Source: Magnetospirillum sp. | GTDB lineage: Bacteria; Pseudomonadota; Alphaproteobacteria; Rhodospirillales; Magnetospirillaceae | Reading direction: 5' to 3' | Assembly (NCBI GenBank): GCA_041915545.1 | Contig: JAYSBF010000013.1 | Coordinates: 13,390 to 77,389 of the forward strand | Length of the DNA stretch: 64,000 bases | Shown here: positions 26,201 through 29,849 of the stretch, piece after piece | Layout of the letters: the number at the start of each line of letters is the position of its first letter | Position numbering within the stretch: position 1 is the first letter of the stretch | Program-made: the position numbers and the translations under genes | The notes under the pieces: generated by a model | What the model was told of the DNA's origin: nothing | The model's database searches: none | Seen by the model: the letters and a program-made list of their open reading frames with translations, nothing else

Positions 26201-26725
26201 ATGGCGGCACGGTCCAGGGTACTGACCGGCGTGGAACGCACGTTCAGTACCGACGAGATCATCGTCAGTAAGACCGATCCCACCGGGCGGATCATCTATG
26301 CCAACGAAATATTCCTGCAAATGGCCGATTATTCGGAAGCAGAAATTTTGGGCCAGCCGCATAGCGTCATTCGCCACCCGGACATGCCGCGGGCGGTCTT
26401 CAAGCTGCTGTGGGATACGATTTCCGCCGGGCGGGAATGTTTCGCCTATGTGGTCAACCGGTCCAAGCATGGGGATCATTATTGGGTGCTGGCCCATATC
26501 ACGCCCACCTTCGATTCCACGGGCAAGATCGTCAGCTATCATTCCAACCGGCGCAGCCCTGGCCGCGGATCGGTGGAAAAGGTGTCTGCCCTTTATAAAG
26601 AGTTGCTGGCAATCGAAAATGCCCATGACGACCGCAAGGTCGGCATGATGGCGGCTTATGCCGAATTGGAACGCCGTCTTGCCGCCTTGGGGGTGCCATA
26701 CGATGAATTCGTCTTCGCTCTCTAA
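26201..26725 (+). CDS. Stand-alone Aer-type (FAD-binding) PAS sensor protein
   Basis: IVSKTD..G.I.YAN, GQPH...RHPDMPR.VF..LW, N..K.GDHYWV. Confidence 0.88.
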
Positions 26726-28013
26726 GGCGCTGGCCGGGGCGATTCTGGCCGGTCTGGCCGGAGCCGTGACCGTGATCGTCGGCCTGGCTCAGGCCGGATT
26801 GCCTGCGGCCATTGGCGGGGCCGTGACCCTGATGGGCGCGGTGATGAGCGTGCTGTTCCTGCAAAAAGGCATGCAGTGTGTCAACCGGGCCAATGCCGTG
26901 CTGGGGCAGGCGGCGCAGGGGCGGTTGGACGTGCGGGTGATCGGCATCCGCGAACACGGCGTGCTGGGGAATTTGGATCACAGCATCAACCGATTGCTGG
27001 ATTTGACCGAAGCCTTCACCAAAGAAGCCGATGCCGCCATGGTGAAAACGGCCGAGGGCCGGTATTTCCGCCATATCCTGACCCAGGGCATGGTGGGGGA
27101 ATTCGCCGATCATGCCCAGTTGATCAATCGGGCGCTGGAGGGGATGGAACGCAAGGCCGGTGAATTCGTGGCCGAGGCCACCGGAGTCGGCAACACCATC
27201 CGCCATCTCAGCCAGGCCGTGGCCGCCACCGCCACCGAATTGGAAGCCACCGCCCAGCAGATGAGTTCCATTGCCCAACACACCAGCGAGCGATCGGCCA
27301 CCGTGGCCCAAGCCGCGTCCGATGCGTCGCATCAGGTGGAGGGGGTGGCCGCCGCCGCCGATCAGGTATCCGCGGGCATCAGCGACGTGGCCCAGCGTAT
27401 TCACGAATCCGCCGACATGGCGCAAAAAACCGTACAGGTGGCCGATGATACCGATGCAGCCATCGGTCAATTGCGTGCCGCCGCCAACAAAATCGGCGAA
27501 GTGGTGCAGTTGATCACCGACATCGCCAGCCAGACCAATTTGCTGGCCCTGAACGCCACCATCGAAGCCGCCCGTGCGGGTGAAGCCGGCAAAGGCTTTG
27601 CCGTGGTGGCCAATGAAGTGAAATCCCTGGCCAATCAGACGGCACGGGCGACCGAGGATATTACCAGCCAGATCCAGGCCATGCGTGAAGCCACGGATCA
27701 TGCGGTCCGGGCGGTTCATGCCATTTCCAGTATGATCGGCGATATCAATAATCATGCGGCCGGTATCGCGGTGACCACCCAACAGCAATCGGCGGCGGTA
27801 TCCGAAATCTGTCGGTCCATCCGCGATGTGGCCGAAAACGTGCAGACCGTGGCCGGAACCATTGCCGAAGTGTCCGACGTGGCCGGGACCGCCACCGATG
27901 CTGCCCAGCAGGTTCTGGTGGCGGCTGGGGATTTGGCCAGCCGGACCGTGGGCATGAATGATGATATCGACGCCTTCATCGCCCGCGTCTGCTCTGGCAT
28001 CCGCAATCAGTGA
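26703..28013 (+). CDS. Methyl-accepting chemotaxis protein (TM hairpin, HAMP, signalling domain)
   Basis: [34 protein letters not shown]; two adjacent N-terminal TM helices. Confidence 0.93.
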
Positions 28014-28115
28014 TCCCCGGTTCCGCCATTGGGGGGCCGCAAACAAAACCCCTCAGCGATTTATGGTGTACTTTCCAGTCAGCTTGGGGTAAGTCTCCAC
28101 GCTGACGGAGGAACC

Positions 28116-28223
28116 ATGTCAGCATCCTTGCTTGATATCGACATGATCGCGGTCCCGGCTTTGGCCAGGGCGGTGCAGTTCGTCGTCACCACCAAAACCG
28201 GCAAGAAGACCACCACTGCCTGA
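28116..28223 (+). CDS. Putative 35-aa attenuator leader peptide of asd (Thr/Lys-rich)
   Basis: GGAGG RBS at 28107-28111; MSASLLDIDMIAVPALARAVQFVVTTKTGKKTTTA; 9 of codons 25-34 are Thr or Lys. Confidence 0.7.
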   Translation: MSASLLDIDMIAVPALARAVQFVVTTKTGKKTTTA

Positions 28224-28249
28224 CAGGCGGGCCGGATCGTCATGTGTGT

Positions 28250-28290
28250 ACGAAAAGGCCCGCGAACCAGGATCGCGGGCCTTTTCGTTT
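28250..28290 (+). terminator. Intrinsic terminator/attenuator hairpin 70 nt upstream of asd
   Basis: ACGAAAAGGCCCGCGA-accagga-TCGCGGGCCTTTTCGT, perfect 16-bp; U-rich 3' side TTTTCGTTT. Confidence 0.88.
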
Positions 28291-28359
28291 GGGATGTTGA
28301 ATGGGTTGAGTTTCTCGTCTGGGGCGTAAGACACCCTCCAGCCAACGGAGAGAGGGATC

Positions 28360-29379
28360 ATGGGTTATAAGGTTGCTGTCATCGGTGCCACCGGCAATGT
28401 GGGCCGCGAAATTCTGCAAATTCTGGCTGAACGGGAATTTCCGGTGGACGACGTGGTCGCCCTGGCATCCGAACGGTCGGTCGGCAAGGAAATTTCCTTT
28501 GGCGAAGATCAGGTTTTGAAAGTGCAAAACCTGGCGACCTTCGATTTCAAGGGGTGGGATATCGCCTTGTCCTCGCCGGGCGCCAAGGTGTCGGCGGTGC
28601 ATTCCCCTCGTGCAGCGGCGGCCGGATGCGTGGTCATCGACAACACGTCGCATTTCCGTATGGACCCCGATGTGCCGCTGGTGGTGCCGGAAGTGAACCC
28701 GGACGCCATCGCCCAGTACACCAAGAAGGGCATTATCGCCAATCCCAATTGCTCGACCATTCAGATGGTGGTGGCGTTGAAGCCCCTGCACGAATTGGCG
28801 ACCATCAAGCGGGTGGTGGTGGCCACCTACCAATCGGTGTCGGGTGCTGGCAAGGAAGCCATGGACGAGCTGTTCAATCAGACCCGTGGCGTGTTCGTCA
28901 ATCAGGACCGGGTGCCGGAACTGTTCCCCAAGCCCATCGCCTTCAATCTGATTCCGCAGATCGACACCTTCATGGATGACGGATCGACCAAGGAAGAATG
29001 GAAGATGGTGGTGGAAACCAAGAAGATCCTGGACCCCAAGATCGCCGTTCATGCCACCTGCGTCCGTGTGCCGGTATTCGTCAGCCATTCCGAATCGGTG
29101 AATGTGGAATTCGAAAAGCCGATTTCGGCGGATGCCGCCCTGGCCGCTTTGTCCCGTGCCCCCGGCGTGACCGTGTTGGACAAGCGGGAACCCGGCGGTT
29201 ATGCCACCCCGGTGGAAGTCACCGGCGAAGATGACGTGTTCATTAGCCGCCTGCGGGAAGATCCCACCGTGGAAAACGGCTTGGCCTTCTGGTGCGTGGG
29301 CGACAATCTGCGCAAGGGCGCAGCCCTGAACGCGGTGCAGATCGCCGAAGTGCTGGTGCGCGATTATCTGAAGAAGTAG
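28360..29379 (+). CDS. asd: Aspartate-semialdehyde dehydrogenase
   Basis: GATGNVG, IDNTSHFRM, ANPNCST, QSVSGAG, DNLRKGAALNAVQIAE. Confidence 0.98.
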   Translation: MGYKVAVIGATGNVGREILQILAEREFPVDDVVALASERSVGKEISFGEDQVLKVQNLATFDFKGWDIALSSPGAKVSAVHSPRAAAAGCVVIDNTSHFRMDPDVPLVVPEVNPDAIAQYTKKGIIANPNCSTIQMVVALKPLHELATIKRVVVATYQSVSGAGKEAMDELFNQTRGVFVNQDRVPELFPKPIAFNLIPQIDTFMDDGSTKEEWKMVVETKKILDPKIAVHATCVRVPVFVSHSESVNVEFEKPISADAALAALSRAPGVTVLDKREPGGYATPVEVTGEDDVFISRLREDPTVENGLAFWCVGDNLRKGAALNAVQIAEVLVRDYLKK

Positions 29380-29470: not shown

Positions 29471-29503
29471 AAAAAAACCCGTGGCGCCGGGCGCCACGGG
29501 TTT
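29471..29503 (-). terminator. Intrinsic terminator of trxA
   Basis: AAACCCGTGGCGC-cgg-GCGCCACGGGTTT; T-run follows on the minus strand. Confidence 0.85.
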
Positions 29504-29528
29504 CTGATCCGGGTGATGTGGCCTTTGG

Positions 29529-29849
29529 TTACAGGCTTTGTTCCACCCATTCATACAGCTTGCCCTTGGGCAGGGCGCCAATCTTGGTGGCGGCCACCTG
29601 ACCATCCTTGAAGATCATCAGGGTCGGGATGCTGCGCACGCCGTATTTGCCGGGAGTGCCGGGATTTTCGTCGATATTGATCTTGGCCACGGTGACCTTG
29701 GCCCCCAGATCCTTGGACAGTTCTTCCAGCGCCGGGGCGATCTGGCGGCAGGGGCCGCACCATTCAGCCCAAAAATCCACCAAAACCGGGCCGCCGGCCT
29801 TCAATACCTCGGCTTCGAACGTGTCGTCGGTGATATTCTTCATCGCCAT
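29529..29849 (-). CDS. trxA: Thioredoxin
   Basis: [21 protein letters not shown]. Confidence 0.96.

Follow-up and report, generated by a model that had tools for sequence, protein, structure and literature searches.

A candidate threonine- and lysine-codon leader-peptide attenuator upstream of asd in Magnetospirillum sp.

Aspartate-semialdehyde dehydrogenase (Asd) catalyses the last step common to the synthesis of lysine and diaminopimelate, threonine, methionine and isoleucine, which raises the question of how expression of its gene, asd, is matched to more than one end product. To our knowledge, the regulation of asd in alphaproteobacteria is essentially undescribed. The question is posed here by a 64,000-nucleotide (nt) stretch of Magnetospirillum sp. 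DNA (contig JAYSBF010000013.1, positions 13,390 to 77,389; hereafter the window, with positions counted from its first letter), in which asd is preceded by a short open reading frame (ORF) rich in Thr and Lys codons and by segments that can form mutually exclusive RNA hairpins. Judging from sequence comparison and folding, this leader is very probably a classical ribosome-mediated, leader-peptide transcription attenuator of asd, with interleaved Thr and Lys codons as its sensor. The mechanism is a textbook one; the combination of Thr and Lys as input, asd as target and the breadth of a conserved, uncatalogued family are new, and the value of the element lies in these and not in a new principle.

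The elements of the leader and of asd are the following, with the pairing segments numbered as regions 1 to 4:

28107..28111 (+): Shine-Dalgarno (SD) sequence GGAGG of the leader ORF; as a GACGGAGG block lying 4-9 nt ahead of the ATG, it is shared by the genus and by many families besides
28116..28223 (+): leader ORF (MSASLLDIDMIAVPALARAVQFVVTTKTGKKTTTA), with its ATG at 28116, 35 codons and the stop codon TGA at 28221-28223; homologous frames are present in 43 relatives
28189..28218 (+): putative regulatory codons ACC ACC AAA ACC GGC AAG AAG ACC ACC ACT, six for Thr and three for Lys
28198..28221 (+): region 1, comprising CCGGC (28198-28202) and CTGCCT (28216-28221), which pairs with region 2
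28225..28240 (+): region 2, AGGCGGGCCGGATCGT, with region 1 or region 3 as alternative partners
28250..28265 (+): region 3, ACGAAAAGGCCCGCGA, at once the left arm of the terminator and the 3′ half of the antiterminator (2:3 fold)
28273..28290 (+): region 4, TCGCGGGCCTTTTCGT, the right arm of the terminator (3:4 hairpin) with the trailing TT
28347..28352 (+): SD sequence GGAGAG of asd; a conserved ACGGAGAG block precedes the ATG of asd
28360..29379 (+): asd, encoding the 339-amino-acid (aa) aspartate-semialdehyde dehydrogenase, the presumed regulated gene, with NCBIfam and Pfam matches

The anatomy of the element can be read directly from these coordinates, which a sequence-only reading of the locus had already given for the SD sequence, the ATG, the ORF, all stems and the hairpin, and every one of which agrees with the sequence. 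The leader ORF is nested inside a longer frame that starts with TTG, and its product ends in TTKTGKKTTTA, with six Thr and three Lys residues among the last ten sense codons. Region 1 pairs with region 2 through CTGCCT (28216-28221) with AGGCGG (28225-28230) and through CCGGC (28198-28202) with GCCGG (28231-28235). Region 2 can instead pair with region 3, through GCGGGCC (28227-28233) with GGCCCGC (28257-28263) and TCGT (28237-28240) with ACGA (28250-28253). The terminator hairpin occupies 28250-28288, comprises 16 base pairs (bp) and is followed by TT. Downstream, the identity of asd is secured by strong family matches (NCBIfam NF011456, 517 bits, and TIGR01296, 456 bits; Pfam PF01118 and PF02774), and its SD sequence lies about 55 nt past the hairpin, outside the alternative pairings. 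An ORF with an SD sequence and a start codon, a cluster of codons for end products of the pathway, an intrinsic terminator and mutually exclusive 2:3 and 3:4 pairings, the hallmarks of a classical attenuator, are thus all found here by sequence and folding.

Is this arrangement shared by related bacteria? Asd homologues were found in 39 of 41 related genomes, and the 300 nt upstream of them were aligned. All 18 loci of the genus, together with two other genera of the family, have the same layout upstream of asd. In the genus it begins with a -35/-10-like pair (CTTGCG ... GGTAAAGCT), GACGGAGG, an ATG and about 25 variable codons; the leader then ends in GTC GYC ACC ACT AAA ACC GGC ACT AAG ACC ACC GCN TAA, and the stop codon is followed by GCGGGCCGGTTCGTC, a short spacer, ACGAAAAAGGCCCGCGG-loop-CCCGCGGGCTTTTTCG and the SD sequence of asd. 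Insertions and deletions within the leader ORF preserve its frame in relatives. Elsewhere in the order, families at a greater distance combine this architecture with other peptides, whose tails include TTTTKTKTTTPR, NTTTKPKTKTGF, TKTTKRKTKTAG and TTTKTTTKTGGG. Altogether, the GTDB families in which the layout precedes asd number about 19, most of them belonging to a single, Rhodospirillales-like order. Among the 43 relatives, the homologous frames are 15-47 codons long, with a variable N-terminal part and a tail rich in Thr and Lys (T/K-rich).

To describe this family, a covariance model (R1) was made from 25 seed sequences with the terminated fold as its structure. The asd Thr/Lys leader family so defined has a T/K-rich tail, a GCGGGC region 2 directly after the stop codon, a GGCCCGCGG terminator and a position before asd; all of these are present in the window, which scores 86.6 bits, though as part of the seed. 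Among 301 genomes of the order, 173 match R1 at E <= 1e-3 and about 77 score at least 40 bits. Twenty diverse strong matches were fetched, and 19 of them lie upstream of asd, 18 immediately before its start and one separated from it by a 177-aa ORF; the remaining one is a plain terminator. In a class-wide sample of 401 evenly drawn genomes, searched at a threshold of E <= 1e-7, just three genomes outside the order match, from two families; all three matches precede asd, and their tails include ETKTKTKKTTV and PTTTKKTKTVA. Among the Asd matches listed, which come mostly from distant alphaproteobacteria, Magnetospira and several Rhodospirillaceae metagenome-assembled genomes match R1 and Chthonobacter has a T/K leader within 280 nt of asd; none was seen within that distance, among the same Asd matches, in Skermanella, Inquilinus, Reyranella, Acetobacteraceae, Sphingomonadales or Xanthobacter. 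A chance origin of the layout is untenable in the light of these sequence comparisons.

The gene on the other side of the leader bears on a different kind of coincidence, and is as follows:

26658..28013 (+): gene for a chemoreceptor (methyl-accepting chemotaxis) protein of 451 aa, with a match to Pfam MCPsignal

The hairpin could be no more than the terminator of this gene, or a generic GGCCCGC palindrome, with the T/K-rich ORF and the complementarities being fortuitous. It is indeed symmetrical and looks bidirectional, many genes here and in related genomes finish in GGCCCGC hairpins like it, and no other terminator is found between the chemoreceptor stop codon (28013) and asd. However, the gene upstream of the leader differs by lineage, being a chemoreceptor gene here and the end of a leuB-like gene elsewhere, and the ORF, region 2 and the terminator are kept before asd whichever gene precedes them; the element therefore belongs to, and travels with, asd. 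Moreover, 22 terminators with GGCCCGC-type arms are present in the Magnetospirillum sp. genome, and the antiterminator complement GCGGGCC is located 8-45 nt upstream of only one of them, that of asd. The T/K enrichment of the tails and the spacing from stop codon to region 2, kept in all 43 leaders, likewise stand against a fortuitous arrangement, which the comparative data already contradict and which we regard as scarcely credible.

The same palindrome (AAAGGCCCGC...GCGGGCCTTT) is common to many gene-end terminators, at 22 sites in this genome and in relatives, and those that share it, such as C45:22550-22662 and C18:16437-16554, obtain spurious mid-range R1 scores. The weak R1 matches in this genome (contigs C45 and C18) and the second matches in two relatives (G002 and G262) were accordingly rejected as attenuators, being plain gene-end terminators with the GGCCCGC palindrome, so that R1 scores cannot be relied on below about 38 bits. 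No second copy of the attenuator was found among the R1 matches in the Magnetospirillum sp. genome.

Within the conserved layout, the position of region 2 is closely kept. In 43 of 43 leaders the distance from the first base of the stop codon to its start is 0-7 nt (median 3), so short that a ribosome terminating there must cover region 2, whose GCGGGC core is nearly invariant between families. When the stretch between stop codon and left arm is folded, region 2 pairs over at least 5 bp with the fixed 9-nt core of that arm in 36 of the 43 leaders; the median free energy is -20.6 kcal/mol and the median z is -3.3 against shuffled spacers. The terminated fold is 87% paired over the 25 sequences and contains eight pairs that have changed on both sides, a figure reached by none of 500 shuffles; its terminator helix is 92% paired, with five pairs changed on both sides. 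For the pairing of region 1, 77-84% of the alignment cells are paired, and some pairs have changed on both sides.

Which amino acids would such a switch sense? Codon usage was counted over the last 12 codons of the 43 leaders and compared with the long ORFs of the Magnetospirillum sp. genome; a genome-wide scan for leader-like ORFs is dominated by Arg- and Ser-rich frames and served for background frequencies only. Thr accounts for 49% of the tail codons (background 4.9%) and Lys for 17.6% (background 2.55%, an approximately seven-fold enrichment), with no enrichment of Ile (3.1%, background 5.2%) or Met (0.8%, background 2.3%). At least one Lys codon is present in 42 of the 43 leaders and at least two in 37. 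Synonymous codons are used side by side (ACC 187, ACT 39 and ACG 23 for Thr; AAA 47 and AAG 44 for Lys), and the order of T and K shifts among lineages, as in TTTTKTKTTT, KTTKTTKTKT and ETKTKTKKTTV. That composition is kept while the sequence turns over points to selection on codon identity, for Lys as well as for Thr, and the finding of Lys beside Thr in 42 of 43 leaders, at shifting positions, speaks for selection acting on the Lys codons themselves. The conserved Thr/Lys runs that the sequence-only reading proposed as a check upstream of other asd genes are therefore present across the 43 leaders. Its mention of earlier Ile and Met codons (DIDMI) fares differently: they fall in the variable part of the peptide, and sensing of Ile or Met through them was rejected, since the segment is unconserved and too far from region 2 and neither codon is enriched in the tails.

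The same pattern of variation bears on whether the leader product matters in itself. It might be a functional small protein, or the terminated RNA of about 190 nt might act in trans in the manner of rnTrpL and peTrpL of Sinorhizobium meliloti, instead of or besides attenuation in cis. Gene callers do predict the leader peptide, and exactly the same 35-aa product is present in public collections as a called, unnamed gene product; a comparable small ORF (sORF) product of S. meliloti has been detected as a tagged protein (PMC10117765), and functions in trans of an attenuator RNA and its leader peptide are documented in an alphaproteobacterium (PMC6614838, PMC7298713). Against this, the N-terminal two thirds vary freely, over lengths of 15-47 codons, and conservation is confined to the T/K composition of the tail, a pattern unlike the evolution of a folded or binding peptide. 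The peptide matches no Pfam or NCBIfam family, and the element is strictly linked to asd. We therefore hold a function of this kind to be decidedly unlikely.

The attenuator reading in turn predicts that the position of the ribosome decides which hairpin forms. Folded in isolation, the stems have energies of -14.7 (1:2), -21.2 (2:3) and -29.6 kcal/mol (3:4), and the leader region as a whole is more stable than shuffled sequences (z = -2.7). The minimum-energy fold of the full-length RNA always includes the terminator, so that the decision would have to be kinetic, as it is in the trp and other attenuators. Nascent RNA was therefore folded up to the end of region 3 with a ribosome footprint imposed at a chosen A-site. 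With the A-site on any codon from Lys24 through Thr31 the antiterminator forms; with the ribosome on the stop codon it cannot form, and the terminator results. The alternative structures suggested by the sequence-only reading thus do exchange with ribosome position. Since a stall at Lys or Thr codons gives the antiterminator in these folds, scarcity of either charged tRNA should lead to read-through into asd.

Taken together with the anatomy, these folds suggest the following course of events. Transcription would probably start at about 28102, initiated at a weak promoter or continuing from the chemoreceptor gene upstream, and a ribosome would load at the GGAGG and ATG (28107 and 28116) and trail the RNA polymerase. 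With ample charged tRNA-Thr and tRNA-Lys alike, the ribosome would reach the TGA at 28221 with its footprint over region 2 (28227-28233). With region 2 covered, region 3 would be free to pair with region 4, the terminator (28250-28288) would form, and most transcripts would end near 28290. When charged tRNA-Thr or charged tRNA-Lys runs short, the ribosome would stall within 28189-28218, covering region 1 and leaving region 2 exposed. The exposed region 2 would then pair with region 3 as it emerges (-21 kcal/mol), no terminator would form and the polymerase would enter asd. Such a leader would repress solely when Thr and Lys are both sufficient, which would amount to multivalent repression of a shared enzyme. 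What the sequences show is the anatomy, the alternative pairings with their conservation and geometry, and the enriched codons; that the ORF is translated, that transcripts terminate in vivo and that the leader responds to Thr and Lys is what we infer from this. For the proposal itself, first made in the sequence-only reading, the conserved ORF, SD sequence, codon tail, position of region 2, 2:3 pairing and terminator, together with the folding, all speak.

Several observations, given in this paragraph and the next, weigh against a switch of this kind or against its lysine input. In the Magnetospirillum sp. genome the 1:2 stem (-14.7 kcal/mol) is weaker than the 2:3 stem (-21.2 kcal/mol), and nascent RNA free of ribosomes favours the antiterminator; basal read-through could therefore be high, and region 1 may matter little. 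This differs from the trp paradigm, in that an untranslated leader thermodynamically favours the antiterminator here. In relatives of the genus the 1:2 pairing is stronger, with 7 + 4 bp (AACCGGC:GCCGGTT plus CCGC:GCGG, 11 bp). The core of the antiterminator (alignment columns 48-54 with 88-94) is 98% paired and invariant, and so offers conservation without covariation; of the stem covariation that the sequence-only reading proposed as a check, that of the terminated fold was found (the eight two-sided changes) and that of the antiterminator core was not. The -35 sequence of the putative leader promoter is degenerate and poor in this genome. Finally, the U-tract is interrupted (UUUUCGUUU), and a simple consensus scan for terminators made no call at the leader hairpin, probably because A-U pairs of the hairpin consume part of the T-run. 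A short and interrupted U-tract, reduced to just three U in some relatives, could mean that leader translation acts otherwise than through intrinsic termination, by way of Rho-dependent polarity, asd translation or mRNA stability. Yet the conserved G+C-rich hairpin of 13-16 bp, the U-rich sequence after it and the competing 2:3 helix fit an intrinsic-terminator switch, and the asd SD sequence, about 55 nt beyond the hairpin, takes no part in the alternative pairings; we consider these other routes very improbable.

The lysine input is weighed down by details of the tails and by the closest catalogued RNA. Within the genus, stem 1 (AAAACCGGC) takes in the first Lys codon (AAA), which is there conserved partly for structural reasons, and Lys and Thr alternate at the second Lys position; one relative (L006) has ATA in place of AAA and no Lys at all. 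With Thr dominating the tail at 49%, the element might then be a threonine-only attenuator, in which the Lys codons serve as a structural part of stem 1 or as an A-rich, unstructured spacer, with no sensing of lysine. The best match in Rfam, Thr_leader (RF00506), would suit such an element: it aligns end to end on the + strand with 40.0 bits (E 7.6e-6) and places the 3:4 hairpin on the terminator of the family. The score is below the gathering threshold of 55 bits, however, and the palindromic terminator by itself supplies about 30 of the 40 bits, the minus strand scoring 30.6; nor is the context that of Thr_leader, upstream of thrABC with Thr and Ile codons, since asd lies downstream here, Lys is the second amino acid and Ile is not enriched. 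Enterobacterial thrL itself carries Ile codons and not Lys codons. The Lys codons, about seven-fold above background, recur in 42 of 43 leaders (at least two in 37), including lineages with a quite different stem 1, and their positions shift. Asd is also needed for lysine and diaminopimelate synthesis, in a genome that has no lysine riboswitch. For these reasons we judge a threonine-only attenuator to be unlikely.

How does a leader with Thr and Lys codons compare with systems already described? It resembles enterobacterial thrL in having a short leader ORF whose Thr codons are clustered towards the 3′ end, a stop codon that adjoins region 2, mutually exclusive 2:3 and 3:4 hairpins, an intrinsic terminator and an aspartate-family pathway under its control. 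The two differ in target (thrABC in the one, asd in the other), in the second codon (Ile as against Lys), in the length of the peptide, which is longer in the asd leader (35 aa), and in lineage, which is alphaproteobacterial here. The lysine riboswitch is likewise a cis-acting, terminator-based control of lysine-pathway genes that answers to lysine, although it binds lysine directly and does not involve translation. No match to its family (RF00168) was found in the region at E <= 10, and it is absent from the whole genome (90% complete), in searches in which control genomes matched. The asd RNA motif of Rfam is a conserved structured RNA upstream of asd in Lactobacillales; it differs in having no leader peptide, in belonging to a different phylum and in its unknown ligand, and families of this type gave no match in the region at E <= 10. 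Sensing of lysine by a leader peptide is said to have been described for the lysine cluster of Thermus thermophilus, by Tsubouchi and colleagues in the Journal of Biological Chemistry in 2005, where Lys codons reportedly sense lysine. That leader differs from the present one in phylum, in serving the aminoadipate route and in using Lys only, and has no sequence relationship to it.

For a Thr/Lys leader at asd the precedent is thin, consisting of one remark from 2023 on S. meliloti. There, the sORF SEP5, in the 5′ untranslated region of the corresponding gene, contains six codons for Thr and three for Lys (Hadjeras et al., 2023; PMC10117765). It is translated, as seen by Ribo-seq and by Western blot of the tagged protein, and its authors considered it a possible leader peptide conserved only in Sinorhizobium (PMC10117765). 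SEP5 resembles the asd leader in having Thr and Lys codons near the 3′ end of an sORF ahead of the corresponding gene in an alphaproteobacterium. It differs in that the published description, on which alone the comparison is based, runs to a few sentences, with neither an RNA switch nor regulation data. Since few R1 matches are found outside the order, SEP5 and the asd element may be distant relatives or independent inventions. Apart from the SEP5 remark, full-text searches of the literature returned no description of an asd leader-peptide attenuator, and asd is not mentioned by Naville and Gautheret (2010). The sequence-only reading, which knew of no described Lys/Thr leader on asd, therefore has to be qualified for the flagged S. 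meliloti sORF.

If the element works as proposed, multivalent control of a common pathway would be explained in a large group that lacks lysine riboswitches, and lysine would join the short list of amino acids sensed by leader-peptide attenuation; the alignment and covariance model would then provide a ready family for genome annotation and for Rfam. A wider proposal goes further: the element might be the founding and best-conserved member of an uncatalogued RNA family through which asd serves, in riboswitch-less alphaproteobacteria of the Rhodospirillales type, as the point at which Lys and Thr are sensed by way of tRNA charging, as a two-input gate, with the terminated RNA of about 190 nt or the peptide perhaps acting in trans as well. 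We regard this full version as a rather long shot.

Upstream of the leader ORF, one further element may contribute to its expression:

28090..28095 (+): TAAGTC, candidate -10 box of the putative leader promoter, aligned with the conserved GGTAAAGCT / GGTATT box of relatives

In the upstream alignments, the -10-like box of relatives is paired with a CTTGC -35 sequence about 17-18 nt upstream. The leader promoter is not among the calls of a promoter scan of the window. Near the start of the leader ORF, GCTGAC (28101-28106) can pair with GTCAGC (28118-28123), which places the SD sequence and the AUG of the leader inside an 11-nt hairpin loop; relatives have similar, imperfect pairing around these signals. 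Such a hairpin could tune initiation at the leader ORF.

The segment between the terminator and asd is less constant. In the window it contains, in the gap before the asd SD sequence, about 20 extra nt (TGAATGGGTTGAGTTTCT...; 28296-28318) that relatives of the genus lack. One genus relative (locus L011, genome G002) has acquired about 120 nt between the attenuator terminator and asd (alignment A2, columns 301-425); this insertion contains a long inverted repeat (GTGTGGCGATTCTGAAATTCGCA ... TGCGAATTTCAGAATCGCCACAC) and looks like a small palindromic mobile element. The L167 locus (G081, family f33; 131-1888) has a 177-aa ORF between the attenuator and asd, and its leader ends in VKTVVTTIKMTGR, with Val, Ile and Met beside Thr and Lys. 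A contig titled 'Actinomycetota bacterium MAG143' (JBLNBU010000218.1, locus L087) encodes an Asd 81% identical to that of the window, behind a genus-type leader (...FVATTKTGTTTTP) that scores 100.5 bits with R1; the label of this bin is probably wrong, or the contig a contaminant.

Two observations concern the flanking genes. The best NCBIfam match of the chemoreceptor gene (26658-28013) is the aerotaxis transducer Aer2, and a 174-aa PAS-like ORF (...HPDMP...) at 26201-26725 (+) overlaps its start, so that the two may form a split or two-gene sensor of PAS and methyl-accepting chemotaxis parts. On the far side of asd, two overlapping terminator-like hairpins on opposite strands occupy 29477-29533, between asd and a convergent thioredoxin gene (29529-29849, minus strand).

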